Shown here in pieces: positions 2,764-41,535 of a stretch of 64,000 nucleotides of DNA. Below the pieces are notes generated by a model, which was not told the DNA's origin, did no database searches, and worked only from the letters and a program-made list of their open reading frames with translations. Position numbers and translations under genes: made by a program. This DNA is from Naegleria gruberi (taxonomy: Eukaryota), in assembly GCA_000004985.1 (NCBI GenBank), contig GG738853.1, one strand, 5' to 3'. Every line of letters starts with the position of its first letter. Position 1 is the stretch's first letter.

Positions 2764-2793
2764 TAATTTTTATAAATATTAAATTTGTAATTC

Positions 2794-19920: not shown

Positions 19921-22900
19921 TTAAAATTGAGCTCCCCAACCAATATAAGTTCTACCTAAAATCTTAACATCGGTTGCCATGTCGATTAAGCATTCAACTT
20001 GTTCCTTGATGGATGAACAAGTTTCTCCAACCTTGGCTCTCTTGTTGGTTTTTGGATCACCTTCAATGGCTCTGTCCACATATTTCAATCCCTTTTTCAA
20101 GTGTAAATTGGCTTGAGCATCACTCTTGAAAATAACTTTAGGATTAGCCAATTCAAGTTTCATCTTGGCAAGTTCGACTTTTCTTTGAGGATACCACTTC
20201 ATTAAGGACTGATCACCATCTTGAGAAGCCTCAGAAGATGATGAGCTAGAGGCAGAATTTGGTAAATTCTCAGCAGACATTTGATAGAATTGTGGATTCT
20301 TCTTGGCATTCTTCAACCAATCTACTAATGGTTCCTTGATAAATACATCCATAGTATTCAATAAAATATGTCGATTATTATGTAAAGCTCTCATGCAATG
20401 TACCATACTTTCAAATAGTAAACCAGTACCAACATTTTCGTTGGCAAAGTCGTCCAAAGTAGTAGAAATTGGTGAAAAGATAGCCAACATTTGACGAGTC
20501 AATCTGAAAGGCATTAATTCAGGAACAGGTAAAATTTCAGTAGCACTACCAAAAGCATGACCAAAATCGATACCAATCAAGGATCCTTCTGAGAAATCAA
20601 CAAGGAAGTTTTCCAAGTGACGATCTCCAATACCCAAAACATAGGAACTAATCGAGAAGGTAGCAAGGGATTTAGCAAATCTATTTCTAATGGTAAAGTA
20701 TGCTTCGTTGGACATTGCCAATGATCTCAAGCCATTTCTCAACAAGTCTGGATCAATAAGTTTGTACTGTTCATCCATTGTTTGTTCCAACATGTCTTGG
20801 TCTGCATTTGAGTAAGTGACCAAATACTTTTGATAGAGAGTGTATTCAGCACCTTTAGATCCTGATACCTTCTCCAACATTTTAAGATGGATAGATGCAG
20901 ATGGATGTTTCAATACTTCTTGGTCATGAGTTCCAGTTTGCTTATTCAATTGTTCTTCAATAATTGCTTTGAGTGGCATGGTATTGTCAACCCATTCAAT
21001 AATACCAACTTCAGAACTCATTGGAACAACCTTGTACATTCTAATGTTCAAATCTCTTTGTTTACAGTTGGTATCTTTGTCGAGAATATTGTTCATGACA
21101 TGGAACAATTGTTGAATTCTTTGATCTTGACGTAAATCTTCACCACCCTTAACAAGGAAAGCATAGTCCTTCTCATCTGAACCGTGAATCTTCAACCTCT
21201 TTGGCTTTCTCATAGAAGACATGGTTAACAAGTTTGGATCAAAGCTGATAATTCTCACATGCTCATCAATACTTGGAGCTTGCATATTGTTTTGCTTACT
21301 TGACATTCCAACACTGCCCAACATGAGTGCAGCTGCTGCCTTGCCAACGTTATTAATATACTGACCAGGAACTTCAATATAAAAGTTTCCTCCATTCTCA
21401 ACAACATCACTAGAGGATGAGATGGTTTCATTACTACCTCTTGTGGAAGATTGATGGAAGTCAAACATCCACTTGGAGAAGTATTCCAACTTGGTCTTAC
21501 CAGGTATCATAGCACCCTTGGTTTCCTTCATCTTTTTAAATTTGACAGCATAAAGTTGCTCGAATGTCTTGTCTGTCATTTCCATCACTTTGGCACCATC
21601 TCTACCACCAAAATCTTTCTTAATTTGTGGAACCCAGTTCTTGGCAAATCTGGTATTGTAGACACCAACATTTGGTGCATTTGGATCGAACAAGTCATCG
21701 AATGCCTCTTCCCACTTGGATTTGATATCCCTCTTTCTTTCCTTTTCCGATTTGTAATTCTTTGATTTCATAATTTCTTTAATATCATCCATGTAAGCTT
21801 TGAATCTAAGTTCAGGATGGTTAAGTTTCTTCAGTGAGAAGATAAATGTTTCAATGAGAGGATTTCTAACCTTTTGTTTCATTAATTTGATACCTTCAAG
21901 AACTTTACGTGTTATACCTGTATTACCTCTTTCAAAGGAACCAATAATATCTTCAGAGCTGATATTGAGTGGATAGTAGAGAGATTGTGGATAATTCTCG
22001 GCAAGAGACAAGAGGATTGGAATTAAACATTCACCTTCTGGTCCAGTCAAATGGGCCAACATTTGTGAGATCCATGTAATAAACATCCAACTTGGAATTT
22101 GTAAAGAGGTTGATGTTGGAGCAAATTTGGCAAAGATCTTTCTGGTGGATGGGAATTTTTCAATCAATTCCAACAATCTAGGGAATCTATCTCTAGCTTC
22201 CTTATTGTAATACTTCATACTGTTCAACATATTTTCAACAATATGCTCAGCAAGAATATCATTGGATGGTAATTTTGAAGACCCTTCTCTGGTAATAACT
22301 AAATCTTCATCATCAGTATATTTTTGACCAAGACGTTCTTTCAAAATTTCATCACAAAAGATGGCAAACTTGAGATAAATCTTGGCAGATTGATATGGAG
22401 AAATAGTATTGTTTCCGTCTTCAATTTTGATAACGACATTGCTATCGTCATTAGTATTCTTATTAACTATTTCTACAGATTCCTTGTATCTATTGAGGGC
22501 TGTTTGCAAGTAATCTTCAGGATTGCCTCCAAGTTTGGTATTTTCTCTCAAAGTATTAGCAAATGAAGAATTGGCATCAGCATCCAAAAGCTTGTAAGTG
22601 AGTACATAACTTGTTGGTACTGTTTGACTGGCATCATTGACTTCCTTTCCATACTTAGTGGCGTTTTGTTTGATAAACTTGATGAGCTTGTCGAAAACAT
22701 CTTTGGTCTCACTGCTTGAACCTCTGCCAGATGTGAGAGCCTTGATCTTTAACAATTTAACAAGGGATTTGAAAAATTCAAAGTCGAATGAAAGAGCATC
22801 AGATGAATCGGCACTATTAGTTACTTCCAAGAGCTTTTTGCTTGCAGCTTGAGCAACTTTGAGATAGCTTTGAGCAACAGTATTGTTCTTTTGCTTTCTA

Positions 22901-24819
22901 GCTGCTTTGGTGACTGTCAAGAACATGACGGCCTTCTCTCTTGTAACTGTCTTTGACAAGGTATCCAAATCTAATGTGCCACTAGCAATATTTGAAAGAC
23001 CACCAGCAAGTGCTTGATAATCCTCTTGTTCTGAAAGACTGAGAGTAAGACTTGGTGACTCTCCAATCAAACTACTAGTGAGTGGACGAAGCTTTGGCCT
23101 AGAAGAAGGTAATAATACACTCGAAGAGGTATCCTTTTCAGTAAAGTTCTCCAAGTTTTGTGAAATCAAATCATACATAAAGTTTCTGTTGGAAATTACA
23201 TTGTCCCAAGTATTCATATCATCAATGTAGGAACTTGGATATCTTGATCTCCAATCCTTCAACATTCTAATAAGATTCTTTGATTTAGCATCTGATTGGT
23301 TTTGCCATAATTGAATAAATTCTTCCATTTCTACAAGAGGTTGAAGTCTTTGGAGATGAAGATGTCTTCCAGTCTTGGCAAGTGGTGATAAAGTACTCCA
23401 AGACATTAAGAATTCGGCATAACTATCTACAACATAGGACTTGGCCTTTTCATATTGATGTGTGAATAAGGACAAGTTTGCCAATTTGTTGCTATACTTG
23501 GTTTCTAAAATTTCTCTCTTTACATTTGATGACATGGATTCTTCAATAAATGTCTTGAGAGATGACCATTTGTCCTTTTGTTTGAGATTACTATCCAAAT
23601 ACAAGGAAAGTAAATTTTCGTTCAATTCTGATGCCTCCCAAATCTTTTGATTGAGAAGTTGTTCAGATTCAGACTTGGTTCTCTTTTGCACTTCGGAAAG
23701 AACTTCTTGCAAGACCAAGTCCCAAGAATTCATCTTCTTGAGACATTCCAATTTTTGTGTTCTCCAAAATTCAACTTCCTCTTCAATTGGAGGTGTGTCG
23801 TGAGTTTGCCAACCAGAATCCCATTGATCTACACCTTGACTGTATATCTTCAAAGCACTATTATATCTGCCATCGAGTTCATCTGAAAGTGCCTTTTTGG
23901 TATTTTCTTGTTGGGCTACATGGTATTCGAAAATGGAACGAATAACATCTTGTTCATCAATGGCCTTGTACAATTTACCAAGTTCTATCCAAGCATCTAT
24001 GTAAGGTCTCATATCATCTTGTCCAGCAATGTTCTCATCTTCCATGGCTGTAGTCTCAATAAGATTATTTTCAATGAGATGTTCCAACAATAAAATACCC
24101 AATTCAACATTGTGGCTCTGCATACTGACCGAGCGAATAAGTTTAGGAGTGAGAATATTGTTCTTAGGTTGTTGAAGATCTTCAGTATCCAAAATAACAG
24201 AAAGCAATGCAGAAACCAGAAGGGAACTATCTGGTGATTTCTTCAACATTTGTTGCAAGTTTGTGTGAATGCTATGCTTGAGTGGTTCTGATTGTTTTTC
24301 TGAGAGTTTTTCCATGTTAGGATAGAGTGAAGTAAATACTGACACAAACAAGTGTCTAGCCAATGATACATCATAAATACACAATGCTTGCAGAGGTGTA
24401 ATAATTTCCTTCAAAGAAATTTGAATGTCAGGCAATTCTCCTGTTCTGTACTTTCTGTACATGGTAATTCTATTCTTCTTGGCAATCTTTTGACGTGTTT
24501 CCCAAGCTTCTTTTTCCTTCTTGATACGTACAGCTCTTCTTGCTTGATATTGTGTCATGGTTGTTTCTTTCAGTTTCAAGAATCTTCTTCTGAGATATGG
24601 TGTTTGGAAATCGTCAGATGAAGAACCTTCTCCACCACTTGTAGATGAGGTACCTTGTTGTTCATTTCCACTACTAGTACTATTACTATTATTAGAAACT
24701 GTCTTGAAAGGAGTGAATAATAAAGAAGTTTGACTCAAACTTGGTGCAGACAAAATATCTTTCAATGTCTCAGAGTACATTGTTGGTGTGAATTGAGGAG
24801 TCTGAGTAGCTTTTACCAT
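19921..24819 (-). CDS. PRKDC: DNA-PKcs-like PIKK, segment 4 (FAT, PI3K-like kinase domain, FATC)
   Basis: 1632-aa ORF. It contains LKIHGSDEKDYAFLVKGGEDLRQDQRIQQLFHVMNNIL, RMYKVVPMSSEVGIIEWVDNTMPLK (compare DNA-PKcs YAVVPMTSRLGLIEWLENT), the catalytic GIGDRHLENFLVD and activation-loop IDFGHAFG motifs, and a C-terminal ...YIGWGAQF FATC tail. Confidence 0.8.
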   Translation of the reverse strand: MVKATQTPQFTPTMYSETLKDILSAPSLSQTSLLFTPFKTVSNNSNSTSSGNEQQGTSSTSGGEGSSSDDFQTPYLRRRFLKLKETTMTQYQARRAVRIKKEKEAWETRQKIAKKNRITMYRKYRTGELPDIQISLKEIITPLQALCIYDVSLARHLFVSVFTSLYPNMEKLSEKQSEPLKHSIHTNLQQMLKKSPDSSLLVSALLSVILDTEDLQQPKNNILTPKLIRSVSMQSHNVELGILLLEHLIENNLIETTAMEDENIAGQDDMRPYIDAWIELGKLYKAIDEQDVIRSIFEYHVAQQENTKKALSDELDGRYNSALKIYSQGVDQWDSGWQTHDTPPIEEEVEFWRTQKLECLKKMNSWDLVLQEVLSEVQKRTKSESEQLLNQKIWEASELNENLLSLYLDSNLKQKDKWSSLKTFIEESMSSNVKREILETKYSNKLANLSLFTHQYEKAKSYVVDSYAEFLMSWSTLSPLAKTGRHLHLQRLQPLVEMEEFIQLWQNQSDAKSKNLIRMLKDWRSRYPSSYIDDMNTWDNVISNRNFMYDLISQNLENFTEKDTSSSVLLPSSRPKLRPLTSSLIGESPSLTLSLSEQEDYQALAGGLSNIASGTLDLDTLSKTVTREKAVMFLTVTKAARKQKNNTVAQSYLKVAQAASKKLLEVTNSADSSDALSFDFEFFKSLVKLLKIKALTSGRGSSSETKDVFDKLIKFIKQNATKYGKEVNDASQTVPTSYVLTYKLLDADANSSFANTLRENTKLGGNPEDYLQTALNRYKESVEIVNKNTNDDSNVVIKIEDGNNTISPYQSAKIYLKFAIFCDEILKERLGQKYTDDEDLVITREGSSKLPSNDILAEHIVENMLNSMKYYNKEARDRFPRLLELIEKFPSTRKIFAKFAPTSTSLQIPSWMFITWISQMLAHLTGPEGECLIPILLSLAENYPQSLYYPLNISSEDIIGSFERGNTGITRKVLEGIKLMKQKVRNPLIETFIFSLKKLNHPELRFKAYMDDIKEIMKSKNYKSEKERKRDIKSKWEEAFDDLFDPNAPNVGVYNTRFAKNWVPQIKKDFGGRDGAKVMEMTDKTFEQLYAVKFKKMKETKGAMIPGKTKLEYFSKWMFDFHQSSTRGSNETISSSSDVVENGGNFYIEVPGQYINNVGKAAAALMLGSVGMSSKQNNMQAPSIDEHVRIISFDPNLLTMSSMRKPKRLKIHGSDEKDYAFLVKGGEDLRQDQRIQQLFHVMNNILDKDTNCKQRDLNIRMYKVVPMSSEVGIIEWVDNTMPLKAIIEEQLNKQTGTHDQEVLKHPSASIHLKMLEKVSGSKGAEYTLYQKYLVTYSNADQDMLEQTMDEQYKLIDPDLLRNGLRSLAMSNEAYFTIRNRFAKSLATFSISSYVLGIGDRHLENFLVDFSEGSLIGIDFGHAFGSATEILPVPELMPFRLTRQMLAIFSPISTTLDDFANENVGTGLLFESMVHCMRALHNNRHILLNTMDVFIKEPLVDWLKNAKKNPQFYQMSAENLPNSASSSSSSEASQDGDQSLMKWYPQRKVELAKMKLELANPKVIFKSDAQANLHLKKGLKYVDRAIEGDPKTNKRAKVGETCSSIKEQVECLIDMATDVKILGRTYIGWGAQF

Positions 24820-27800
24820 ACCAAAGGCAGGAAGTTGTGGATTAGACCACCAGATTGAGATAAGCTCATAGTATTGTAAGGATCTTCAAGAGCTAAAGAT
24901 TCATATGGAAGTGAAGCATAGCTTTGCAATGAACTTGAACCTTTTCTGCCTCCTTGAGAGCTGAGAACAATCGAGGTGGCTGTGAGAGGTAAACTCTTGT
25001 GTTGCCAACTTGTATCAATCTTGTATTCCTTGAAAACACAATTAGACAAACTTTCAGAGAAAATGGCATTGGCATCAGAAAAGTCTGGAGAACGGTGCAA
25101 TAATTGTAGCAACAAGTAAGAACTGAATTGAAGCCACTTGTCTCCAAGATTATTAGAGTAAAGCAAGGAGAATGTTTGTTCCAAACGTTTCAAACTTTCA
25201 TTGGAAAGTCTAGATTCATGATCCCAAAAGTGGAGCATCTTCTTTCTAATATCCTCTGAAATGTCATTCATAGCCTTGATAAGCTCAGTTCTAATGACTT
25301 CTTCTCCTCTGAACTCTGTAGGTTTGTTATCGAAAAGCCAAATCAAAATATCATAGTACTTTTCACGACATGGTTCGGAGAAGGTACTAAACATTTGAAC
25401 ATCACTAGTATTGATGTATTGAGTCATAATTTCCATAAAGTGCATTATATCAGATTTGTTAATGGTCTTTAACAATTGATAAATGATTTGAAGAGTAAGC
25501 AATTGAGTTGGTTCGTCCTTGTGTTGAAGGTTTTGTCTCAAGAATGGTTTCAAAGAAGTGTACAAATCTGGAACAAATTCTGCTCTCCATGTAATAAGTT
25601 GGAGAGCAATCTTCTTATAAACACCATACAAGTTTGGTAAAATGTCCAATATCTTGGAAGGCAAGAAGTGATCAATGAATGCAGTATCATGGATACCAAT
25701 CTTGTAGAGACAATTCAAGAATCTGTCATATTGCATTTTTTGTAAGAATGAAGAACAAGTTGCAAGCAATAATCTTTCGAATGTGACAACACTTTCGTTG
25801 GTATTGGCAAGTTTTGAAAGACTCTTGAGAATCATACCACAAATTTCAGAAGCAGCCTCATAGACATCCTTGTTTTTGAATGATATATTTTCCAAAATCT
25901 TTTCATAGAACTTTTCCTCTGTGATAATGGTTGAGTCTGTTGTTGCATCAAAAACAGGAATATCATTAGCCAACAAGATACCCAAAAGTTGAAGACCAGT
26001 CGTTCTGGCAAGCTTGGCTGTAGACTTGTTTTCATCGTGACAAATCCAACCAAGAATGATTGACTTGTTAATAGTTAAACTATCCTTCCACTTTTCAACA
26101 ATAAGTTTGACAAGTTCCAAGTTGGATCTGAGTACTACCTTCTTTTGATGAGCACAATTCTTAAACATGAAAGCAAGTAGTCTAGAAACTAGTTCCTTTC
26201 CTTGAGTGGATTTACTTGGTGAAACATCCTTCCACTTTAAGAGTAAAATTATTAAATCTCTAATGAAATAGGTGATACCCTTAGAGGAAAGATCTTCATT
26301 CTTCTTTTGGTCATCCTCTTCCTTCATAATAAATTTAATAATTGGCTCGAAGAAATACTTGGAAAATGGTTCAAATATAGTTGGTCTATTTGTGATAATC
26401 TTGCAGAGGAAGAGCTTGATATTTCTGTGAGTTTCGTCATTATTTAACTTTTTGTGCATTTCAGCCATCCAGGAAGGCATTGCAGAGTTTGCTGCTGCCT
26501 TATCAGAACCAACAGGATATTTGAATATGGAAACCATATGGTCAACAGTTCTCAAAATTGAAGCCATACATGGATTAGTGTTCACTTCATCCATTTCTAG
26601 AGTAGAACTGTTATCAACATTTGGTGTCTTTTCACTTTCCTTAGATTCATCTTCAGATGATTTGGTTACTTCCTCAGAATATTTGGAACCAGGAATGAAA
26701 AAGCTTCCTGCAAATGGCATGCTTGAGGAGAGTGAACTATCCGATAAATATTGTGAAGAGAGATAGCCAATTCTCAATTCACCAGCTTTTCTTTTACCAT
26801 TATCAGAAGTTGGCTGATTAGAGTCAATTCTAAGTTCATCAACAGCTTTTCTATGGAAGGCAAAGTTCGTTTCAATTTCAAACTTATATTCACGATTGGT
26901 ATCGATAATATTTTCCCACAAATCTTCTTCTTTTTCTTTGAAAAGGAAACCAGTGTAGAACTTTTCTTGTGTTTGGGTACATTTTACACCACCAGCCAAT
27001 ACATTAAAGGCACTTGTTCTAAAGTCCAACAATAATTCATAACCCAAAACCTTGTACTCTTGGTCAGATGGTTTCCAGGAACGAGCAGCAAAGCTTGATC
27101 TCATAACCTTTTCTGTGAGTTCCTTGCCAGTTAATTGACCACTACCGGATGATTGCTTTTCACAATACTTGTTGTTAATATATTCCTTTACAGCAGAAGC
27201 AGGCAATAAACGATACATTGCTTCCAATAAATTATAACAACATGTTCTAGTTACAAATAGAGCACGAACAGAATCAGCTTCCAATTCTTCAATATTTGGA
27301 TTAGATATAGTTTCGCTGAGAGCAGTTGGTTTAGCAATAGACTTCATTAATTTCTGAATATTGTCTTCAAAGAATTGTACAAGACCTCTTTCAGGCATAT
27401 GAGTCAAACAAGTGAGACATACCCACTGTATGATTTGTCTTCTAATATCTATTGGCAAACTTTCCTTATAGAATGTTTCTAAACAAATATTGGCAGACTT
27501 TAACCGCTTTTCATCAGTGAATTTTCCAAACAACACCTTTAAGGCATTGGTCATCTTTTCTTGGAGTGGATGGTTCTTCCATCTGAAAAGAGGTAATACC
27601 TGTTCTAAAAAGTCAACACTATCAGAAGATTGAACAGCATAGAGCAAGTCTTCAAGCAAGGAAATGTGATCATCATATTCACTAGTCTCTGGCTCTATTT
27701 CTTCATAATTGAGTGGGAACTCATTAATAACAATAGACTTGACTTGTCTAAGGATCGAATTAAGTTCCTCAGGTAATTTTCCTTGTGTTTCAGGTTGAGC

Positions 27801-28646
27801 AGCTGAATGTTTAAATAAAATAGGTAAAATTCTAATAGCTCTCAACTTTAAGTCAAAGAGACCAAAGGTAGCTTCATCGTTATCATTTCTTGATGTAGCA
27901 TCATCTCTCTTGATTCTCAAACAAGCAAGTAAGAAGTCAATGATAGCATTTTGATAGACACCATGTTGGAGGATGCATGAAGACTCAATGTTGAACAATC
28001 TTTCAATTAGGGACATAGTTTTAAGTTTAAAGTCATCATCAATATTTCCTCCACATTTTTCCAATACTGGTTGTGAGCAATCCAATATTTGAATAACAAA
28101 CATTGTCTTTTTCTCCTTTTTAGATAGGGATAACCTCATAAACTTTAAGCTTACACTCAACAAGACGTCAAATAAAAAGTGATGGTTAAACTCGTTTTCT
28201 TGGTCACGTTTGTTGGAATTAGAAATGCTTGCTATTCTGCCTATAATCAACCTGGCAAATTGGTCCATATGTTCAGAAATATAGTTATCAATTTCTGACT
28301 GGAATGTTTTGTAGAAAAGGGCGCCTTTTGTACTTGGTTTTACTCTGTGAATTGCATTTCTTGATCTGTCTCCTTCATCACCTGCTACTTGATAAGAATT
28401 ATCAATTTGTGATAACTTCTTTGAAAGTACACTCTCACCTGATGAGGTAGGATCAGATGTAGTAACATAGTTCAAAATACTTTCGGCCCAATCCAAAATC
28501 AAAGCATAATTGCAACAACTCCTTTGATATAATGACATTGACTGGTCCCATAAGAGAATCGAAATTTTCAGTGAATAACTTATTTGAAATAACATTAGCA
28601 AATACTTTTCTAGAAGAATAATTTGGAAGGAATGAAGAGTCATCAA
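24813..28646 (-). CDS. PRKDC: DNA-PKcs-like PIKK, segment 3 (FAT region)
   Basis: 1277-aa ORF. It overlaps segment 2 by 194 nt in a different frame. Confidence 0.7.
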   Translation of the reverse strand: MMTLHSFQIILLEKYLLMLFQISYSLKISILLWDQSMSLYQRSCCNYALILDWAESILNYVTTSDPTSSGESVLSKKLSQIDNSYQVAGDEGDRSRNAIHRVKPSTKGALFYKTFQSEIDNYISEHMDQFARLIIGRIASISNSNKRDQENEFNHHFLFDVLLSVSLKFMRLSLSKKEKKTMFVIQILDCSQPVLEKCGGNIDDDFKLKTMSLIERLFNIESSCILQHGVYQNAIIDFLLACLRIKRDDATSRNDNDEATFGLFDLKLRAIRILPILFKHSAAQPETQGKLPEELNSILRQVKSIVINEFPLNYEEIEPETSEYDDHISLLEDLLYAVQSSDSVDFLEQVLPLFRWKNHPLQEKMTNALKVLFGKFTDEKRLKSANICLETFYKESLPIDIRRQIIQWVCLTCLTHMPERGLVQFFEDNIQKLMKSIAKPTALSETISNPNIEELEADSVRALFVTRTCCYNLLEAMYRLLPASAVKEYINNKYCEKQSSGSGQLTGKELTEKVMRSSFAARSWKPSDQEYKVLGYELLLDFRTSAFNVLAGGVKCTQTQEKFYTGFLFKEKEEDLWENIIDTNREYKFEIETNFAFHRKAVDELRIDSNQPTSDNGKRKAGELRIGYLSSQYLSDSSLSSSMPFAGSFFIPGSKYSEEVTKSSEDESKESEKTPNVDNSSTLEMDEVNTNPCMASILRTVDHMVSIFKYPVGSDKAAANSAMPSWMAEMHKKLNNDETHRNIKLFLCKIITNRPTIFEPFSKYFFEPIIKFIMKEEDDQKKNEDLSSKGITYFIRDLIILLLKWKDVSPSKSTQGKELVSRLLAFMFKNCAHQKKVVLRSNLELVKLIVEKWKDSLTINKSIILGWICHDENKSTAKLARTTGLQLLGILLANDIPVFDATTDSTIITEEKFYEKILENISFKNKDVYEAASEICGMILKSLSKLANTNESVVTFERLLLATCSSFLQKMQYDRFLNCLYKIGIHDTAFIDHFLPSKILDILPNLYGVYKKIALQLITWRAEFVPDLYTSLKPFLRQNLQHKDEPTQLLTLQIIYQLLKTINKSDIMHFMEIMTQYINTSDVQMFSTFSEPCREKYYDILIWLFDNKPTEFRGEEVIRTELIKAMNDISEDIRKKMLHFWDHESRLSNESLKRLEQTFSLLYSNNLGDKWLQFSSYLLLQLLHRSPDFSDANAIFSESLSNCVFKEYKIDTSWQHKSLPLTATSIVLSSQGGRKGSSSLQSYASLPYESLALEDPYNTMSLSQSGGLIHNFLPLVW

Positions 28647-31236
28647 TAAATTCCAATCTACTTAATAACCTAATACCTCTAAATAAGAAAGTATAGTCAT
28701 CCATGTTCATCCTGGAAGACTTCTTGAAATCCAATCCAGTAATATACCTCTGGACATACAATCCAAGAATTTCATTCAAAATTTTCCTAGTTCTGGTCAT
28801 AACAGTTTGTCCAATAGACTTGGATTGTTTGGCATAATTTGTAATACCTTCGAAAATCTTTCTAGTATATCTTGGAAGTATTGTTTGTACATCTTCATTG
28901 TTTGTATTGAAGCCTTGTTTTCCTGGAGCTAAAATGCACATTATGAGCAACTTGATAAACTTGTCAGTTTCCATAATGCTTTCATTTCCATTCACCTTTT
29001 GTCCAGTCAATGTACTTGGATACTTGTCGAGGATAAGACCAATAAAGTTAAGTAATCTGAAGGTTGTAGATGTCTTTCTGTTGACAAACTTTTCACTATC
29101 CAATGTATTAATAATCAGGAAACAATCACTTGGCTTCTTCAAAGCAAATTTCTCAATAAAGTGATAGATATGACTCATGATGGAACAAGAATAAGAGGAG
29201 ACATATTCCTCTTCTCCGTCATCTTTACCTTTCACATCTTCGTCCTCATCCAACATTGGATCAGAGGTACTCTCAACTTTTCTCTTCTTATAATTGGCAA
29301 GTCTACCACCAGAGGAACTTGATCTCTTGTTCTCGCTCTCAATTTCATCGTGTTCCTTTTCCAAGTTGAACAATTGGTGAGGGTAGAGGAATTTGTGATT
29401 GAAGAGCCAATACAAACAGTCAAATGATGCTTCTAGCTTTTGTAACCAAATCATAACTTGTTCAAAGTATGAAATATCTGTAGCAGTTGTCAAAGTATTC
29501 TTCACATTCTTCTTTTCCTCTTTCTCTGATTTGACCTTAATAGAAGATGAATAAGAAGGAATTAAAGAGGAAGGAACATCAACAACCTTAAGTACACTGG
29601 ACTCATCAGCCTTGAATTTAGCATGGATCCATCTTCTTGGACCATCATCTGAATCAAAACCAGGAAGGAGCATACATAATGTTGGGAATAGCTTCATACA
29701 TTGCTCACGACAAATTCGTTCTCCATTGCCACATTGCATAAATATCCAATCAACTGCATGTGCAAGTGTAACATGTATTCTTCTATCGTTTTCCTTGATT
29801 AATAAATGTGATTTGGCAACAATAATTCTTTCAATGTGATCTATGAGTTGAATAGTCTTTTCTACTAAACCTAGAGAATTTTCTGAACTTTTCTGGTCTA
29901 ATGAAGATGCCTCGTTATCTACAATCTTTAAACTCACAATAACATTGTGTAACCAATCTAAAACGTGTCTCTGGACAAGTGAATCCACTTCTCTGAAACT
30001 CTTGTACATACTATTGAAAGCCATAATGGCACCCAAACGTTTAAACAAATTAGGATGGTGAATGTTACTGTACAATCTTTGGAAAAGAGACTTGACATTA
30101 ATAAATTTGCCATCCTTATCATGTTTAACAGACCACTTGAGGAATTCATTCAAAAGTAATGAGCATTGATCTCTCAAGGCACCATCAGTAGTCTCTGACA
30201 TGGAGTCAATAATAGCATCGAGGAGAGCCATTGTTTCCTTATTTTCATATTGCATGTTTTGGGTAAGCCAATGGACTAATTGGAATATTAAAGGTTCGAA
30301 CAATTGTTTAGTCACTTGTTCAGTATCCACAGATAATCTTAAAAGAACAGGGAAGATCTTTTCGTAAATCTTAAAGTATGGTGTTGGATCAGTGGAAACA
30401 ACAATGGTAGTGGCATCTTCATCATTGGTATTATTATCTTGTTTTTTCCTCTTTTCGTCTTCTTCTGCCTGCTTTAATTGGATTTCTTGTGCTCTTTGTC
30501 TTGCTTGTGGACTGTAAGCATTCTTACCAACCATGTACAGGACAAGAGAGTGCAAGAACTCACAAGCCGCAATCTTTGTTTGACGATCACTAGACTTTTC
30601 AGCCAATTCAGTAATTCTTGGGAGAATGGAATCAAAGTACAGCTCTAATTTAACATCACGGAATGGCATTGAAAACTTAACCCTTTGCTCAGTGTCCCAT
30701 CTAATGATATTTTCATCAGCTTCTTTCTCAGAGGCAGAGTTCAAGATAAGAATATTATCACCACCAATTTTACCCAGTAATCTGATAACTCCCAATTGTA
30801 CTTTTCCAAGTGGAGTTTGATCAGAAGATGACTTGTTTTGTGATTTAGACTTGTCATCATTAATCTTTCTTATAGAGTTCTTTGTTTGTCCTTTTAATAA
30901 TTTCTTCACATCCACTACATCAGAATCAGCTCCAGAATTCTCCTCTCCAATACCAACAGAAGAGTTATGTTTAACCATAAGATATGGATTCAACTTTGGT
31001 AAGACCTTTGGTAAACATTTCTCTGTAATTTCCTTCTTTGGCAAAACTTTAATCCAATGCTCTAGTGCTTTTAGGCCAATATCAGCAAGAGGCAAATAGC
31101 TAAGACCTAGTTCGAATGAGAGCTGAAGTGGATGTACAAAGTATCTCAAATCAATGAAATTCCTTGGCATTGAAAGTACAAATTTGATACAACTGGTGAG
31201 TAAATCTCCTTTAAATTCATGAAGTCTCTGAATCAC
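28453..31236 (-). CDS. PRKDC: DNA-PKcs-like PIKK, segment 2
   Basis: 927-aa ORF. The track start is a GTG, not ATG. The frame is offset by 1 nt from segment 1, so a short intron or an indel lies in 31237..31357. Confidence 0.7.
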   Translation of the reverse strand: MIQRLHEFKGDLLTSCIKFVLSMPRNFIDLRYFVHPLQLSFELGLSYLPLADIGLKALEHWIKVLPKKEITEKCLPKVLPKLNPYLMVKHNSSVGIGEENSGADSDVVDVKKLLKGQTKNSIRKINDDKSKSQNKSSSDQTPLGKVQLGVIRLLGKIGGDNILILNSASEKEADENIIRWDTEQRVKFSMPFRDVKLELYFDSILPRITELAEKSSDRQTKIAACEFLHSLVLYMVGKNAYSPQARQRAQEIQLKQAEEDEKRKKQDNNTNDEDATTIVVSTDPTPYFKIYEKIFPVLLRLSVDTEQVTKQLFEPLIFQLVHWLTQNMQYENKETMALLDAIIDSMSETTDGALRDQCSLLLNEFLKWSVKHDKDGKFINVKSLFQRLYSNIHHPNLFKRLGAIMAFNSMYKSFREVDSLVQRHVLDWLHNVIVSLKIVDNEASSLDQKSSENSLGLVEKTIQLIDHIERIIVAKSHLLIKENDRRIHVTLAHAVDWIFMQCGNGERICREQCMKLFPTLCMLLPGFDSDDGPRRWIHAKFKADESSVLKVVDVPSSLIPSYSSSIKVKSEKEEKKNVKNTLTTATDISYFEQVMIWLQKLEASFDCLYWLFNHKFLYPHQLFNLEKEHDEIESENKRSSSSGGRLANYKKRKVESTSDPMLDEDEDVKGKDDGEEEYVSSYSCSIMSHIYHFIEKFALKKPSDCFLIINTLDSEKFVNRKTSTTFRLLNFIGLILDKYPSTLTGQKVNGNESIMETDKFIKLLIMCILAPGKQGFNTNNEDVQTILPRYTRKIFEGITNYAKQSKSIGQTVMTRTRKILNEILGLYVQRYITGLDFKKSSRMNMDDYTFLFRGIRLLSRLEFIDDSSFLPNYSSRKVFANVISNKLFTENFDSLMGPVNVIISKELLQLCFDFGLGRKYFELCYYI

Positions 31237-31313
31237 ATTTTCTTTTACAAATTTGAGTAAGTATTGGAAACAAGTGACTCTAGTATTATAGTCTACTGTG
31301 AAGAGCTTTCTTA

Positions 31314-33659
31314 TTAAAACTTCATCATCTCGACTTGCTCCTCTTCTATTGGAGTATCATCTAACATGGATTGTGATTCTTGTTTGATTATTCTATCCTT
31401 TGTGAAAATGCTCTTCTCGTTAATATCCTCAAAGTATTCATACCTGTCACTAATCCTCATAGCAACTGAGAGTAGTTTATAAAAACCACTAATATATGAA
31501 TATTGAGTAGACTTTTCAATTAAAAGTTTTGAAAATATATAGTTCCATCTAATAAAGTGTTTTGGTTTGCACTTTTTCATGAATAGCTTGGTGAATTCGA
31601 TCAAATTTAAGAAAAGTTCCATATCTTTAGCATTGGATGGTATGAGAGCATCTTGAATCATTTCAGCAGAAACCTCAACTGGAGTAGAACCAGCTTGGTT
31701 ACTAATATTATTAACATTTGTACATCTTAGATCAAATTTAGAAATCATTTGCATAATTACTTCTATAATCTTGTCATAAACAAGAGAATGTAAATGTTCA
31801 ATTACTTCCTCAGAAAAAGATAAATCAATCCAAGGATAGTTCCATTCTCCCAATTTGATAGTCTTTGGATTCAAAATATTATACCACAAGTCCAAATATT
31901 CTTCATAGAGAGAAACTGGTTGATCCATATCCAAATTCACATCATTAGTGGAAACCATACTATTTACAGAGGATATTGTCAAGGTCATACTTTGGAAAAT
32001 AATTCTATCCAAAAAGCTGGACAGTGCTCTTTCCTTCAAATACAAAGCAATTAATAATTTTACAAATGCACTATAGTTGGCATACCTATACTTTGGGAAT
32101 AAATATTGCTTAGGGTAAACTAAAAAGAGAATACCAGAAATCTTTTCTAATGAATCTAAAATCCAAGAATCAATAGTATCCAATTCCAAAATAATATTTG
32201 CAAAAGCAGACAAAAATGAAGGAATATGAGAAACTGATTCTTCTAATTGTTCTTGACTTCTAGTTAATAATTGATCACTCAATTTCATTAGTTGTCTCAA
32301 AATCATCTTAGTATCACTTTGAGTTAGGAATTTTTTCATTGGTAATGCAAATTGTCCAAAACTTCTAATAGCAATGCTTAGGTAGTATTTGTTAAAGGTT
32401 GGATTGGTAGTTGGAGGTGAGGAAGTTCCACTTCCTTGAGTCATTGTAATATCTGCAAAATTGAGTGATAATAAAGATTTGAATTTTTGCATCAGATTTT
32501 TAAATGTCCTCAAGTTGGATTCTAATTTTCTCCCTCCTTCACGTACAAGTTCATAGGAAATTTGAGCTAAAAAGCTTTCAAGTGCTGGAAATGAATTCTT
32601 TCTAACCTTGTCATTTCTGTGAGAACATAGAGTTGACAATCTGTCAAACATCTTTTCAGCATCAACAGTGAGATATTCCTTAAATTGATAAGCATGTTTT
32701 GAAATCATAATTAGAGCTGCTTTAGGTACATCATATCTTGTTTCATTGACAAGTTCCAAACTTGTACAAATTAATTGATAAAGTGGTTTAATATATGATG
32801 ATCCTTCCTCTACAGAGCCACCAAATTGTGACAAGAAATGAGAAAGCCCTCTAAATGTTGATGCAATAAGTTGTGGTTCTGGTTTAGCCTTTTTTGATTG
32901 ATTCAATAATGTATTCATCAAGAGTGATAACATTTGTTGTTGATACATGTGAGTTTCTCCTGGGAAGTACTCACACAATACACCTAACAAATGCAAAATT
33001 GCTCCTTTTACAGATTGATTTCCACTATTTGTCATTCTTTGAAACTCTTTGAAATAAACTTGAAATACTTCCTTGATGTTTAAACTTGTTTCGGATTCGG
33101 CTGGTGATCTTGTTATTGTTGTTTCATTATTATTGTTATTATCATCCTCCATCAAATCACCTTCCTGTTGTTGTTGGTTAGCAGCTGTTGTTAAAGATGA
33201 CGATGAAGATGATTTGATTAAACTTGATCCATTTTCCATCAAAATAATTAATAATTTAATCAGTGGTGCTATTGTTGATAATCTAACTTGGTTCGAACTT
33301 TCACGTCTAAAAACATTGACACACCACCGTTTAATGATGAGAGCCTGTTCTAAAATTCTCTCCCGAGCAATCTTGATATAATTTAAAAGAAAATCAAAGA
33401 TGGCCTTCCTACTCAATGTCATTGTCTTGTTACCTTGTGTGCTTGGATAGAGTGTTATTGATTGATGAACATAGGCAAATATACCCTTTTCCTCATGAAA
33501 TAAAACACTCGAACACAGACCAATGTCATCGGGTGATAATCTACTAACAAAATCATTCATATCTGATATGATCGATATTGGGTTCAATAGAGCCATTGAC
33601 TTTTCTCCATCTTGCAACACAATGTGAAGATCAGAGAGATTTCTCTCAAGGGCTTGCAT
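31314..33659 (-). CDS. PRKDC: DNA-PKcs-like PIKK, segment 1 (N-terminal HEAT region)
   Basis: 781-aa ORF with ATG at 33659. Helical-repeat composition. This is the first of four co-linear same-strand ORFs that together total about 4600 aa. Confidence 0.7.
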   Translation of the reverse strand: MQALERNLSDLHIVLQDGEKSMALLNPISIISDMNDFVSRLSPDDIGLCSSVLFHEEKGIFAYVHQSITLYPSTQGNKTMTLSRKAIFDFLLNYIKIARERILEQALIIKRWCVNVFRRESSNQVRLSTIAPLIKLLIILMENGSSLIKSSSSSSLTTAANQQQQEGDLMEDDNNNNNETTITRSPAESETSLNIKEVFQVYFKEFQRMTNSGNQSVKGAILHLLGVLCEYFPGETHMYQQQMLSLLMNTLLNQSKKAKPEPQLIASTFRGLSHFLSQFGGSVEEGSSYIKPLYQLICTSLELVNETRYDVPKAALIMISKHAYQFKEYLTVDAEKMFDRLSTLCSHRNDKVRKNSFPALESFLAQISYELVREGGRKLESNLRTFKNLMQKFKSLLSLNFADITMTQGSGTSSPPTTNPTFNKYYLSIAIRSFGQFALPMKKFLTQSDTKMILRQLMKLSDQLLTRSQEQLEESVSHIPSFLSAFANIILELDTIDSWILDSLEKISGILFLVYPKQYLFPKYRYANYSAFVKLLIALYLKERALSSFLDRIIFQSMTLTISSVNSMVSTNDVNLDMDQPVSLYEEYLDLWYNILNPKTIKLGEWNYPWIDLSFSEEVIEHLHSLVYDKIIEVIMQMISKFDLRCTNVNNISNQAGSTPVEVSAEMIQDALIPSNAKDMELFLNLIEFTKLFMKKCKPKHFIRWNYIFSKLLIEKSTQYSYISGFYKLLSVAMRISDRYEYFEDINEKSIFTKDRIIKQESQSMLDDTPIEEEQVEMMKF

Positions 33660-33844: not shown

Positions 33845-36040
33845 TTAGAATTTGAGCAAATTAGAAGTAGAGGCCTTCTTTGGTGGTGGTAAGAATTCTT
33901 CTTCCTCTTCTTCCTCTTCCTCCTCTTCTTCTTCTTCTTCCTCCTCTTCTTCCTCTTCCTCTTCCTCTTCACCTTCAAGTTCTTCACCCTCTTCCTCTTC
34001 TTCTTCTTCCTCCTCTTCCTCTTCTTCCTCTTCACTGTCATAGAAGTTGTCGATATTATCATCGTCACCTTCTTCTTCCTCTTCTTCGGACTCGTATTCT
34101 TCACTTTCTTCCTCTTCTTCTTCTCCATAGAAATCATCAATATCTCCAGTGAAAAGTTCAGAAGATGTTTCTCCAATAGCACCAACATCAGCTTGACCAT
34201 CAGTAGCAGCCACGACATTTCTTTCCTCATAGTTGAGTGTTTCAACTGGGAAATCGGGCAGAGGAGTGTATCCTGATGTTGAGTGGTTGAGTATGTGTGA
34301 TAATGAACCCAATAAGAATCTAGCACGATCTTCAACGAATTTACTGTTAAGAGAAACAGAATTCTTCTTTCCTGATGACCCAAAGATTTCGTCCGACTTT
34401 TCATGAAGTGTACTTGTTGTTCCCTTTGGATTAAACAAGATATTTCTCATAAATCTGGCACGATCACGAACATCGTAACTTTGATCGTAACGAGCCAAAT
34501 TCAATACGTATTGAATTAACATGTTAATTTGTTCTGATTTCTTATCTCCAGTACTTTCTAAACTCAAATAAAGTTTTGTACTCAAATTCAATGCTTGCAA
34601 TTTAACCAAGTCATCTTCTTTAACAAAGTCTTTAGCTAAAATACGAAGAGCATCAGCAGCAACACCAATACCAACACCTCCTGATGGAAGATATTCAATA
34701 TATTCACCAATCATATAAGCAATACTTGCTCTAGCAATTGGAACCTTAATATCATCCAAAAGAATAGCCATTTGAAGAATAATCTTCTTGTTATCTTCTG
34801 GGTTTTGTTGAAGCAATTGGTGAATAGCAATAATAGATTCAGCAACAATGTGTTCAGAACCTTTGGTAATCAAATTCATGAGAGTTCCAATACAAGATTC
34901 AACAACTTCTGGAATCTTTGAAGCAACTCTGCCCATAGCTTTGATAGTATTATTAACAAAATCTTGTTCTGGGAATTTAACATATGTTCTAAATTCCTTC
35001 AAAATACTATGAACAGTTTCGTCTGTGGCAAGAAGTGACAAAATTTCCAATTTCAAATTTCTTACATAGGCTGGATCACTAGCATAAATAAAGAAATCCT
35101 TCAAATGGTTACCAAAAACTTCTGGTCTTTCTCTAGCAATTGTTGAAACTGACATTAAAACAATGTAAGCATTTTCACGATATGATCTCAAAATTCTCAA
35201 AAGTGGAGTAACACATTTCAATGAAAATTCTTGTCTTGGTGACAAGTAGAAATGTAAATTAACAACCATTAAAACAACTGCAGAGTTTCTAGTTCTTAAA
35301 AGTGGTGCAGTAGATCTGAGTAATAATCTGTGATCTTGATCAAGTTCCATTTCTGCTCCTGGTTCATATCCATCATCGAAAATTTCCTTGTTTCCATCAT
35401 GATCTCCTTCTTCATCATCTTCGTCATCATAGAAAGCACGTTTCTTATAAGTTTCTCCCTTGAATGGTGATTGGAAATGAGTACGACCATATCTCAACAA
35501 CATTTGCATAATAGAACATTGTCCCCATTCATCACAATCAACCAAATATCTACATAACTTTCTAAATACAGGGTGAATCAATTCATAATTTGTTGGACAA
35601 ACTTCATTGAAAGCGTGAACAGCAGCTCCCAAAACCATTGTGTTATTATCCTTTAACAATTCTCCAATTAGTTCGGCACATTCAACAGCCAATTCTTCAG
35701 GAGATTGTCTAAATACTTTAATAATACCAAGAGCAGCAGCCTTTCTAACATATGGACTCATATCATGGAGACACTTTTTGATTCCGACAAGAATAACTGT
35801 GGTAATATCTTGTACGTTCAAACTGGACATGACTCTCAAAGCCAAAGCTCTCAAGAATTGATTCTTATCATCAAGATCCTTTTGGAAGTTGTTAATTGAA
35901 AGCAATGCTTCTTCTTGTTTTTGTTCAGCAAAGTGAACAAGATACATGTACACTAACTTTTTCAATTCAACATTCTTTGTAATACAATTCTTGACAACGT
36001 ATGGGAAGAGAGGTTCGACTTCCTTGCCTGATGAAGCCAT
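33845..36040 (-). CDS. AP3B: AP-3 complex beta subunit, exon 2 (trunk plus acidic hinge; no ear domain)
   Basis: 731 aa. NYELIHPVFRKLCRYLVDCDEWGQCSIMQMLLRYGRTHF matches AP3B1 ([38 protein letters not shown]). The exon1-exon2 junction KLVGMKKVIAMASSGKEVEPLFPYVVKN aligns to AP3B1 RIVGMIAKGKNASELFPAVVKN. The Glu/Asp/Ser-rich hinge is typical of AP-3 beta. Confidence 0.7.
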   Translation of the reverse strand: MASSGKEVEPLFPYVVKNCITKNVELKKLVYMYLVHFAEQKQEEALLSINNFQKDLDDKNQFLRALALRVMSSLNVQDITTVILVGIKKCLHDMSPYVRKAAALGIIKVFRQSPEELAVECAELIGELLKDNNTMVLGAAVHAFNEVCPTNYELIHPVFRKLCRYLVDCDEWGQCSIMQMLLRYGRTHFQSPFKGETYKKRAFYDDEDDEEGDHDGNKEIFDDGYEPGAEMELDQDHRLLLRSTAPLLRTRNSAVVLMVVNLHFYLSPRQEFSLKCVTPLLRILRSYRENAYIVLMSVSTIARERPEVFGNHLKDFFIYASDPAYVRNLKLEILSLLATDETVHSILKEFRTYVKFPEQDFVNNTIKAMGRVASKIPEVVESCIGTLMNLITKGSEHIVAESIIAIHQLLQQNPEDNKKIILQMAILLDDIKVPIARASIAYMIGEYIEYLPSGGVGIGVAADALRILAKDFVKEDDLVKLQALNLSTKLYLSLESTGDKKSEQINMLIQYVLNLARYDQSYDVRDRARFMRNILFNPKGTTSTLHEKSDEIFGSSGKKNSVSLNSKFVEDRARFLLGSLSHILNHSTSGYTPLPDFPVETLNYEERNVVAATDGQADVGAIGETSSELFTGDIDDFYGEEEEEESEEYESEEEEEEGDDDNIDNFYDSEEEEEEEEEEEEEEEGEELEGEEEEEEEEEEEEEEEEEEEEEEEEEFLPPPKKASTSNLLKF
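33852..34140. repeat. imperfect (GAA/GAG)n trinucleotide repeat (ttc/ctc on the + strand) encoding the poly-Glu hinge of AP-3 beta
   Basis: Directly visible low-complexity tract. The other-frame ORFs (K/R-rich 33826..34404 minus; S-rich and L/P-rich on plus) are frame shadows of this tract. Confidence 0.85.
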
Positions 36041-36267
36041 CTATATATTTTAATTATTATTTAAATTGTTGTTGTTTGATGAACAATTAAATTATATATT
36101 GTTGTTAACACGATATATAAATATCACCAAGATCATCAATAACAAGATCCAAAACGATAAAGTACAATTAGTCATCAGTCAAATTATCATATTATCCACA
36201 ATCATCATCAAAAAATCCACACAAAAGCACCATCATCAAAAAAACCATCTAAAAAATCTTCACTTAC

Positions 36268-36405
36268 AGCAATAACCTTCTTCATACCAACCAACTTGTC
36301 TCTGAAATTATTAGAATCCAATTGTTTGGTAATCTCATCGAACTTGGCTGTATTCGATTCCTTAAAGTATTTACTATCACCTCCCAAAACTCCTGTGTAA
36401 GACAT
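36268..36405 (-). CDS. AP3B: AP-3 complex beta subunit, exon 1
   Basis: ATG at 36405. Translation MSYTGVLGGDSKYFKESNTAKFDEITKQLDSNNFRDKLVGMKKVIA ends in phase 0 at a GTAAGT donor (36267). The 227-nt intron ends at ..atatatag|ATG (36041). Confidence 0.6.
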
Positions 36406-36902
36406 TTTTTAAAAACTGATAATTATTAAAAAATAAATCTTTGCTGATGCAACACGACTCCGCTTCCAACTCCCAATTCTAACGACTAGAAAATTTTGCC
36501 ACTTGGCAATAGCCAATTAGAAGATAAGTGCTGGCTGCCTAAGGTGAAAGATTTTTCAACATTGCCTGAGAACATGTTTATTGTTAGATGAAATATTGTT
36601 CTTCCGAAAGTTGAAGGAAGAGATAACAAATATTAGCAAACTAAATTAACAACCAGAACTGTTTATAAAGAACAATGAGAAAGCTGTGCTTCAAACAGAT
36701 AATCATGAATTAATTCATTAATATTTTGAAGAATGAGTAGGAAATATTGTTGACCTAAGATAATTGTGTTCAGGGTTGCCAGGTTTAGATTATCCATTGT
36801 TAAACTGCTGTGCTTGTTTAACATAACTGTTTGGCTGACAATAACATCGTATTAATTGAGTCACTTGTCAAACATAATGACCCAATAATCATTAAAAAAT
36901 AA

Positions 36903-37302
36903 ATGCCAACACAATCAACCTCCTCTAATGATGCTTCCAATAACTATGAACCCATCCTGCAACAAGCAGAACAAATCATCCAAAAACGTTTTCTCATTCC
37001 CTACCAAGAGAAACTCAATCAATTATTAGGAGATAGAGGAAGTATTTCTCCAAACAATTCAACTTCGTCAAATCCATCTACATCTTCAGCAACACTTCCT
37101 CCACTCCAATTAATAGTAAATTGGTCTAGTATTAGAGATTTAATCAGAGAATATCCTGTTAATGGTCTTTCCATTGCTGAGAATGCTATTCAAATATTAC
37201 AAGAACCATCTTTATATGAAAATATGAGGAAAGGTGTGATGAGATACATTTCCGAAGATAAATTACAGAGAACTATATTTAATGATCAGGTAGATGTTAT
37301 TT
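36903..37302 (+). CDS. hypothetical protein, exon 1
   Basis: ATG at 36903. A canonical GTAAGT donor at 37303 lies inside the track ORF, whose read-through tail CKCCCAYLIYSMIANCLSDDLYLMIL looks intronic. The donor is phase 1. Confidence 0.4.
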
Positions 37303-37742
37303 GTAAGTGTTGCTGTGCTTATCTAATATATTCAATGATTGCGAATTGTCTTTCTGATGATTTATATTTGATGATTCTGTGAAAATGTGGTTGTCTATTA
37401 TTGATAATGTATTGCTGTGCAAAACACATGATTCTCGAAACAAAATTGTTGAAACACTGATTTTATTGGCATGACAATTTACAAATCGGTATTGTGAAAT
37501 TTGATGGAATTTTTTAACAACAATAACCTCGTCTCTAATACCTTTACTCTCTATATTGAAATATCATCATTGACACATTCTATTCACAAACATTTAACAA
37601 CTATTCCAATTTGAATCACAATTGTGGATAATGACACCATTTACTTGTTACTTCTCTTGATTATAATGATGACAATGAATGGTTGACAAATAATAATAAT
37701 AACAACACACTAACTAAACCATATCACAATAACAAACAACAG

Positions 37743-39262
37743 GTATTGACTTTTTTGCAGGAGGACTCAAGAGAGGAGATCAAGGATCTGAAGAGGAAAC
37801 ACTCGGAGAGGAAACAATGGTTGGTCTCTCTGATGAACATGAAGGTCATTTACTGTATATGATTAATGCCAGTACTCAGGAAATACTTGCATCGAGTACA
37901 TTTTATGAACATATTGAGGAGAGTTTTGATGAATTGTTGGAAACTCATCAACAAATATTGGAAAAACAAACAAGTAGTATTTCAAATCAAAAACAAAAAA
38001 CCAATCAATCCATGAAATCCATGCCAATTCAAAGTGGGATTGGAGGAGTAGCTTCAAAATCAAGCCCTCAACTCTCCACTTCACCACTCAGTAGAGGTAG
38101 CAGTGTCATTTTGAGCTCTTCACCAAATGCTCAACAGAGAAGTGCTCTCTCCAGACAAACATTTATGAGCTCTCCAAATTCAGCCACCACTCCAATCTCT
38201 CCTAATGATTTAACAACTGGAAAATCCAAGCCACCACTAAGAAGAATGTCATACGTCTATGATCCTAAGCATTTGGATGATGACGATTTGATTGGAAGTT
38301 CTACCTCAATGTCACACATTAATCCTGATACATTGGCTAGTGATTCGGATTTGGATAAAATTGAACAATTGAGACGTGTATGTCTTCATCCACATATTTG
38401 GGAAAAGAGAGATGTTTCCAAGTTGATTAGAATTTTACAAAATGAGGATCTTCGTTATTGGAAACCAAATTCTGAGCAATCAGTCATGATTGAAAAATCA
38501 GTTGAACAATTGGAAGCTAGATTTAAGAAATTTGCATCCAATGAAAAAATTGTCAAGGCGTGGATGATTACAAAGATTAATAGAAAGAGTTTGAAACAGG
38601 AGAGAGTTTTCGTCTTGACTGATTCCAAATTCTATACAATGAAATTCTCAAAGGATATTGATGAAAAGCATATCAAGATGTATCCTCTGAGTGCTGTAGC
38701 CATGATGGATTGTGCCAGATTTATTCCAAATAAGGATAAGAAGAAGAAACCATACGGTCTGGCAGTTTATATGGATGAAGAAAAAGTATCATCCGGTTCC
38801 AAAGTTAATGGAGATGAAGCTGAAACACATACCTATCTTTCACATGATGATAAGAAAAAGAAGAAGAATCTCTCTCAAAAAGTCATGGGTAAACTCCGTA
38901 AGGAAAAGACTCTCCAGACCAACTATGATGATTCCTTCGATGATGATGGTGATAGCTCTTCTATGGATGCTTCTCGTAGAGGAACAATTGTGGAAGAAAT
39001 CTCTCTCGAAGAAAAGTCACAACTCAGACCAGACACTAGTAATTTGGTAGCTCAATATTTCATGTCATGCAATACTGTTCACCAAAGTGAAGACCAACGT
39101 GAATTCCTGATGGAAATTTCATGGGCTATCTTTGCCTGTTGTAGTGCATTGAAAGGTGAACAACAACTCGTGCCATTCACACAACATCAAATCAAGAGAC
39201 CAAAGAAGGATTTGGTTGGCACCTACTTGTATAATAAGCTCAGTATTGGTATGAAGAAATAA
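37743..39262 (+). CDS. hypothetical Ser-rich protein, exon 2 (could instead be an independent gene starting at ATG 37817)
   Basis: The acceptor aacaaacaacag|GT at 37742 is phase-compatible with the 37303 donor (T+GT gives Cys), and the frame is continuous into the 481-aa ORF. The alternative acceptor ttttttgcag at 37760 would create TGA. Confidence 0.4.
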
Positions 39263-39824
39263 ACAAGCACCAATTTTTTTCAACAAGTCTTTACCACAGT
39301 AGCATAATTTGAACTAATCTTGATATCTCTTAATAATAAAAAACTTCTCTTCATGTTCCACTACAATCCCTCCTCACAAACCATCAACCTTCCAGTAGTA
39401 ACATCACAATGAAAATTAAACTGTTTATCTCAATCGACAAATTCATAGAGAATCTCTTCAACAAATTTCTCAAACTCTTTTCAAGTCCCCACCTCTCTGA
39501 GGAAAACGAGAAATTAATTTGTACATCGTGATGGCTGTTTTGGTCCGAAAAAAATCCTCACTCACAACTCTCTCTCACGCAGCACACGGAGGCAGTAGAA
39601 GACGAAGTTAGTTCTTCTTTTTTGAATTTCCCCCTTTGGTCTATTTGCCGTTACATCATCATACCCCCAAAAGACAACATCTTTTTGTTTTTTATATATA
39701 TTTAATATAACTACTCGACTACTAATACTGCTACTAGTTTGATAAGCTAAGAAGAATTGTACATTTTCTCCATAATATAATATCGTCATCTTTTAAACCC
39801 GAATAATATTTACATCATCATACA

Positions 39825-39901
39825 ATGACAACCGTTCCAAATATTGCTTCATCATCCCATAAACAACCATATAATGTTTTGGGTCTCGGACAGCCTTTAC
39901 T
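39825..39901 (+). CDS. pfkB-family kinase (adenosine-kinase-like), exon 1
   Basis: ATG at 39825. Translation is MTTVPNIASSSHKQPYNVLGLGQPL followed by CT, with a GTAAGT donor at 39902. Confidence 0.6.
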
Positions 39902-40010
39902 GTAAGTATTAATACTTTGCAAAGTAGTAGAATGAATTTGTGGTTTATTTCAATGCCATATCATGATATGTTATTATACAATGGCAACAATAACATTATT
40001 AAAATCAAAG

Positions 40011-41454: not shown

Positions 41455-41535
41455 TTTCCTCCAACAAAAATTAATTATTAAATAAAATAAAAAGTAAATA
41501 ATTTAAATTCAAATGTAAATCACAATTTAAAAAAA

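Follow-up and report, generated by a model that had tools for sequence, protein, structure and literature searches.

We find that four collinear open reading frames (ORFs) on the minus strand of a 64,000-nucleotide (nt) stretch of the Naegleria gruberi genome (assembly GCA_000004985.1, contig GG738853.1; hereafter the window) constitute one intron-free DNA-PKcs (PRKDC) gene of about 4,580 residues, whose reading frame is broken three times in the reference assembly. An ORF scan returned the segments at 33659-31314 (ORF1, 781 residues), 31236-28453 (ORF2, 927 residues), 28646-24813 (ORF3, 1277 residues) and 24819-19921 (ORF4, 1632 residues), exactly as listed in an original prediction made from the sequence alone, which had joined them into a single DNA-PKcs gene of about 4,600 residues with a 1-nt frame change at every junction. 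Measured from stop to stop, the frame order is 0, 2, 0, 2, with doubly open stretches at 31356-31317 (junction J1), 28661-28456 (J2) and 24885-24816 (J3), and the shifts amount to -1, +1 and -1 nt, respectively. The assembly as it stands provides no continuous ORF for the whole protein; three single-base edits, however, suffice to open a stop-free frame of 4,579 codons, which in DNA of 35% G+C cannot be chance.

Judged from its sequence, the repaired product is a DNA-PKcs orthologue, as indicated by its domain set, its C-terminal module and its higher scores against DNA-PKcs than against ATM. The profiles for DNA-PKcs_N, CC1-2, CC3/NUC194 and CC5 match with E values of 1e-22 to 1e-96 and follow one another in canonical order over the four ORFs (Table 1). 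DNA-PKcs_N is divided between ORF1 and ORF2 and CC5 between ORF3 and ORF4, so that J1 cuts the former domain and J3 the latter. The FAT, kinase and FATC domains all fall within ORF4, the last segment, where the original prediction had placed them, and the catalytic-loop motif GDRHLEN and the IDFGHAFG motif are intact in its translation. Matches with E = 0 comprise the DNA-PKcs proteins of Naegleria, Willaertia, two further protists, Dictyostelium (1,697 bits) and mammals (horse, 1,455 bits), whereas the best ATM match to the repaired protein reaches 115 bits (~1e-28), which places it nearer to DNA-PKcs than to the other PIKKs (ATM, ATR and TOR). That a protist DNA-PKcs is informative, as originally argued, is no new point, the N. 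gruberi orthologue being already annotated and included in a published phylogeny (PMC8021618).

Comparison with relatives shows what the unbroken gene looks like. The DNA-PKcs of Willaertia magna (P0002; L002 3001-16461) shares 61% identity with the repaired protein over 100% of its length, is collinear with it residue for residue and carries the same domains, but is encoded by one unbroken ORF of 4,486 codons free of frame breaks. In a tblastn search of the window, this protein yields four collinear high-scoring segment pairs (HSPs) in alternating frames, covering its residues 1-805, 798-1710, 1673-2869 and 2888-4486 and thus spanning residues 1-4486 over 33659..19924. The N. lovaniensis locus (L001) is 70-77% identical and is represented by models of 758 and 3,906 residues, the shorter of which (P0039) is 77% identical; from codon ~706 onwards this orthologue keeps one and the same frame for 2,058 codons, through both J1 and J2. 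Orthologue alignment across the junctions, the check proposed with the original prediction, accordingly finds one frame throughout in Willaertia and across J1 and J2 in N. lovaniensis. At greater distance, human DNA-PKcs (PRKDC; PDB 5W1R, 7K0Y and 5LUQ) has the same succession of N-terminal HEAT region, CC1-5, FAT, kinase and FATC, with conserved catalytic motifs, although the Naegleria protein exceeds the human one by about 450 residues and identity to the mammalian protein is ~30% (measured on the horse orthologue, P0007). A full-length query missed both N. lovaniensis models even though P0039 was in the database, so that the missing N. fowleri matches are not to be read as absence of the gene; a search with an N. 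lovaniensis segment, aimed at the 3,906-residue model and at N. fowleri, likewise gave no scored matches.

The junction intervals originally given proved correct and could be narrowed considerably, to 31330/31329 for J1, ~28488 for J2 and 24876-24822 for J3. At J1, alignment of the N. gruberi DNA (GTCGA-GATGATGAA) with that of N. lovaniensis (GTTGAAGATGATGAA) directly identifies one missing base, and the Willaertia HSPs overlap there over 31329-31320. The repaired protein reads ...IEEEQVEDDEVLIRKLFTVDY... where N. lovaniensis, in frame, reads TDEEVEDDEILMKKLF, and its segment ...QVEDDEVLIRKLF... likewise agrees with ...EVEDDEILMKKLF... of the same relative. At J2, the last ORF2-frame codon backed by homology is TTG (28491-28489, in CFDFGL) and the first such codon of the ORF3 frame is GCC (28487-28485, in AESILNYV), leaving a single orphan G between them. 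As both relatives have one more residue at this point (repaired N. gruberi ...LLQLCFDFGL(x)AESILNYVTTS...; Willaertia CFDFGLSVEELIDFL; N. lovaniensis CFEFSIDVDHLLDMV), the orphan G can mark either two missing bases or one extra base. J3 is placed no more finely than 24876-24822, the N. lovaniensis locus sequence stopping ~640 nt before reaching it; here the ends of the Willaertia HSPs lie 54 nt apart, matching 18 Willaertia residues, none of which is skipped. The indels had at first been assigned to runs of T, and those at J1 and J2 were moved to the positions backed by N. lovaniensis and Willaertia.

The three junctions are not introns. Spliceosomal introns, short or non-canonical, that bridge the frame changes were the leading idea of the original prediction and are the solution adopted by the public gene model, and frame-restoring GT...AG pairs are indeed present at every junction, three of which (281, 67 and 119 nt) the public model uses. 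We nevertheless consider such introns highly improbable, because every candidate deletes sequence that is conserved in Willaertia, in N. lovaniensis and, for J3, out to mammals. Of the two introns originally proposed for J1, the 41-nt version removes the conserved ...LIRKLFTVDYNTR (Willaertia VLMDKLFTVDFGTR, N. lovaniensis ILMKKLFIVDYNTK), and the 80-nt version also takes out residues conserved among the orthologues; in the multiple alignment, the sequence lost at J1 to these candidates and to the public model includes the conserved ...YFEDINEK... and KLFTVDYNTRVTCFQYLLKFVKENVIQRLHEFKGDLLTSCIKFVLSMP. At J3, the proposed 20-nt intron eliminates GMVKATQ and the 119-nt one the entire GMVKATQ...SQTSLLFTPFK, a stretch (GMVKATQ..QFTPT...SQTSLLFTPFK) that remains recognisable in Dictyostelium, starfish and horse in a MAFFT alignment. 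Furthermore, homology confines the frame switch at J1 and J2 to 0-3 nt and, as the interval left at J2 is only ~3 nt, no intron can fit there; the sequence from 24876 to the GMVKATQ codons lacks an AG acceptor altogether; and the Willaertia orthologue has no introns.

To these alignments we add two scoring comparisons. Against a profile built from eleven orthologues, with N. gruberi left out, simple repair outscores the annotated intron at J1 (902 vs 789 bits), at J2 (773-777 vs 716 bits) and at J3 (824 vs 765 bits), where it also exceeds the 20-nt intron (807 bits). The 41-nt intron at J1, by contrast, scores 903 bits to the 902 of the repair and is thus not separated from it; the tie reflects a stretch conserved only in close relatives, and it is the N. 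lovaniensis and Willaertia alignments that settle J1. When all frame-restoring, stop-free GT/GC-AG introns were listed (83 for J1, 103 for J2 and 74 for J3) and scored against Willaertia, every one fell below the simple repair, the best of them being 11-49 nt long with the non-consensus donors GTTAGA, GTTTTA, GCCGAA and GCTCTT. The real introns of the window have GTAAG donors and CAG acceptors, as illustrated by a 49-nt intron (8024-7976, GTAAGC) in an OXA1-like gene, named by eye from the junction sequence, and a 48-nt intron (42704-42657, GTAAGT) in a potassium-channel gene. This bears out the original remark that GTAAGT-type donors occur elsewhere in the window and not at the junctions, where none of the donors fits the GTAAG consensus. 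For comparison, the median intron of N. lovaniensis measures 80 bp (PMC6125883). Single-base indels, which the original prediction had offered as its alternative, fit the evidence.

Decoding of the shifts by programmed ribosomal frameshifting, transcriptional slippage or RNA editing is similarly improbable, the sole point in its favour being that three frame changes stand alongside an otherwise perfect ORF. The shift directions are mixed and share no common motif, the X XXY YYZ heptamer is absent at J1 (CAA GTC GAG ATG), neither J1 nor J2 offers a slippery heptamer or a long homopolymer, and N. lovaniensis and Willaertia are in frame at the corresponding sites, so that no shift is conserved. 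Programmed frameshifting and slippage are therefore not supported.

The public N. gruberi model (P0001; 4,423 residues) derives from the same locus and assembly (strain NEG-M) and is identical to the window save at the three junctions, where the repaired protein instead continues to 4,579-4,580 residues. P0001 bridges the lesions by spurious introns and hence lacks conserved sequence, including 94 residues of the N-terminal HEAT region at J1 and 41 residues at J3 (Table 1). In the MAFFT alignment, from which the ATQ correspondence is taken because phmmer gave no more than a loose alignment of the J3 region to PDB entries, the segment KATQ...FTPT lies opposite mammalian RATQ...FTLTQ and thereby places the equivalents of human T2638 and T2647 in a part of the protein that is absent from P0001; the human numbering is counted from an anchor in which query residue 1 equals residue 2577 of 5W1R. 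These two threonines belong to the ABCDE autophosphorylation cluster, part of which is consequently without a counterpart in the public model. The SSQ upstream, aligned to T2609/S2612, is retained in P0001.

Table 1. Coordinates of the N. gruberi DNA-PKcs gene, its domains, its three lesions and the spurious introns of the public model
Feature	Position in window	Strand	Basis and remarks
Complete DNA-PKcs (PRKDC) gene	19921..33659	-	Repaired: single exon, 4,579-4,580 codons plus stop; ATG 33659-33657, stop 19923-19921
DNA-PKcs_N (PF20500), profile positions 93-640	31407..33092	-	ORF1, Pfam
DNA-PKcs_N remainder, profile positions 665-809	31230-30769	-	ORF2, Pfam
DNAPKcs_CC1-2 (PF20502), best stretch	29353..30381	-	ORF2, Pfam
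DNAPKcs_CC3 / NUC194 (PF08163)	26220..27443	-	ORF3, Pfam
DNAPKcs_CC5 (PF19704), profile positions 1-394	24975..26186	-	ORF3, Pfam
DNAPKcs_CC5 continuation, profile positions 462-689	24750-24079	-	ORF4, Pfam
FAT domain (PF02259)	22171..23571	-	Pfam, 2e-24
PI3/PI4-kinase catalytic domain (PF00454)	20317..21165	-	Pfam, 9e-55
FATC domain (PF02260)	19933..20013	-	Pfam, 1e-8
Lesion J1, loss of one base at 31330/31329	31321..31334	-	DNA alignment to N. lovaniensis
Lesion J2, orphan G at 28488 (one base extra or two missing)	28485..28491	-	Homology to both relatives
Lesion J3, -1 shift (loss of one base or gain of two)	24822..24876	-	Poorly conserved 55 nt just upstream of conserved GMVKATQ
Spurious 281-nt intron of P0001	31163..31443	-	Removes 94 conserved residues; 789 vs 902 bits
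Spurious 67-nt intron of P0001	28610..28676	-	Followed by ~40 residues in the wrong frame; 716 vs 773-777 bits
Spurious 119-nt intron of P0001	24703..24821	-	Removes FGMVKATQ...SLLFTPFK; 765 vs 824 bits; the longer J3 option of the original prediction

The origin of the indels, unlike their positions, is inferred, and the data at hand do not tell sequencing errors from real inactivating mutations. We slightly favor errors or haplotype artefacts in the draft consensus. There is no in-frame stop in 4,579 codons, the catalytic motifs and FATC are intact, and each lesion is a minimal indel; in addition, the scaffold shows features of a draft, namely a 50-N gap and, beyond it, a terminal piece of 654 bp that copies 2686-3339. 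In a relative-rate test with four outgroups, N. gruberi showed no significant acceleration over Willaertia (chi2 at most 3.4). If the indels are consensus errors, the cell would make one full-length protein of about 4,580 residues.

Several observations weigh against this preference. With several-fold read coverage behind the consensus, three indels in 13.7 kb are a high number, and no other frameshift was seen in ~29 kb of coding sequence elsewhere in the window, a control that includes ORFs of 1,776, 974 and 731 residues and three neighboring genes checked against N. lovaniensis. The largest of these (10514-15844, plus strand) is intact, encodes TPR repeats, a PAS domain and an adenylate/guanylate cyclase catalytic domain and, being free of frame breaks, served as an internal control of sequence quality. 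Were errors uniformly distributed, the chance that all three would fall in the DNA-PKcs gene would be ~0.03, a figure that is post hoc because the locus was picked for its frameshifts. Moreover, J1 lies outside any long homopolymer, J2 resembles a net loss of 2 nt relative to both close relatives, and at least one Naegleria strain has a disrupted copy of the gene in its genome assembly, given that the transposon insertion in N. lovaniensis described below is genuine. Searches were also made for independent sequence: exact-protein look-ups of P0001 and ORF4 for independent contigs recorded nothing, metagenome scans with the J3-region protein and with the J1 DNA pattern (0 or 1 extra base) gave no matches, and a homology search for read-assembly fragments with the three repaired junction regions joined, in which the word index was swamped, yielded N. 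lovaniensis P0039 and nothing else.

The converse, that the indels are real and that the sequenced haplotype of strain NEG-M, or all of its copies, carry a very recently inactivated DNA-PKcs, is a serious contender, though we judge it to fall somewhat short of an even chance. The gene could then be a young unitary pseudogene, or the lesions could be null alleles sheltered by other gene copies if the strain has several; translation would end after 781 codons. In line with such a scenario, all three lesions lie in the DNA-PKcs gene and none was seen in the ~29 kb of neighboring coding sequence, the simplest reading of J2 is a 2-nt deletion, the 99.5%-identical duplicate that closes the scaffold would fit two haplotypes in the region, and eukaryotes have lost DNA-PKcs repeatedly (PMC8021618).

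The independent disruption of the N. lovaniensis orthologue points in the same direction. An element of 3,884 bp (L001 12215-16098; PYSW02000022.1, ~610411-614294) divides its coding exon at codon ~707. The element has an 8-bp target-site duplication (GGAATTAT) and terminal inverted repeats of 15 bp that match perfectly (CTGGCGTTCCCAACT / AGTTGGGAACGCCAG); N. gruberi shows the empty site, RWNY|IFSKL (window ~31553). The 1,146-residue ORF of the element has no significant Pfam match. Because the element splits the exon, the public N. lovaniensis annotation shows three genes (758, 1,146 and 3,906 residues) in place of one.

Real lesions would, on the other hand, have to be reconciled with the absence of nonsense codons and of any significant excess of lineage-specific substitutions. 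Three frameshifts without a single stop and with a non-significant relative-rate test fit only very recent inactivation; with all functional motifs intact, any such event would have to be extremely recent, and catching a gene in so brief an interval is unlikely a priori. Furthermore, the Ku80 of N. gruberi figures among the sequences that one publication aligned for the C-terminal DNA-PKcs-binding motif (PMC8549938). The fuller claim, that NEG-M either is without functional DNA-PKcs or carries null alleles of it and that the kinase is dispensable and decaying in Naegleria, at least in the two sequenced strains, we regard as tenable, although somewhat less likely than not.

The window holds real sequence only to 50760, with the 50-N gap at 50057-50106. 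The 654-bp stretch found at 2686-3339 and 50107-50760 is 99.5% identical between its two copies, with 3 mismatches and no gaps, and the second copy begins directly after the gap and ends with the scaffold; the pair may reflect a recent duplication or an allelic piece placed wrongly during scaffolding, a draft-assembly feature in either case. The stretch encodes a 198-residue protein (2794-3390 and 50215-50730, both on the minus strand) that matches the phage tail collar domain (PF07484) at 1.9e-17 and, weakly, the Gp10 baseplate C-terminal domain; such a phage-like module is unusual for a eukaryotic nuclear gene. Upstream of the DNA-PKcs gene, the order of the adaptin, hSac2 and PfkB kinase genes is kept in N. 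lovaniensis at 68-88% protein identity (window 33845-43374 against L001 1-9900), whereas a two-pore potassium-channel gene (42071-43368) looks inverted between the two species.

The value of these results lies above all in the correction of a reference: P0001, which serves as the heterolobosean representative in comparative studies of DNA-PKcs, is mis-modelled at three places. By homology, the kinase encoded by the repaired gene would be recruited by Ku to DNA double-strand breaks and would control non-homologous end joining. Real lesions would make NEG-M, the standard laboratory strain, a natural mutant in DNA-PKcs, which would matter for DNA-repair studies and for attempts at gene editing in Naegleria; and if DNA-PKcs were dispensable and decaying in Naegleria, this would bear on end joining in the genus and on the difficulty of its transgenesis.

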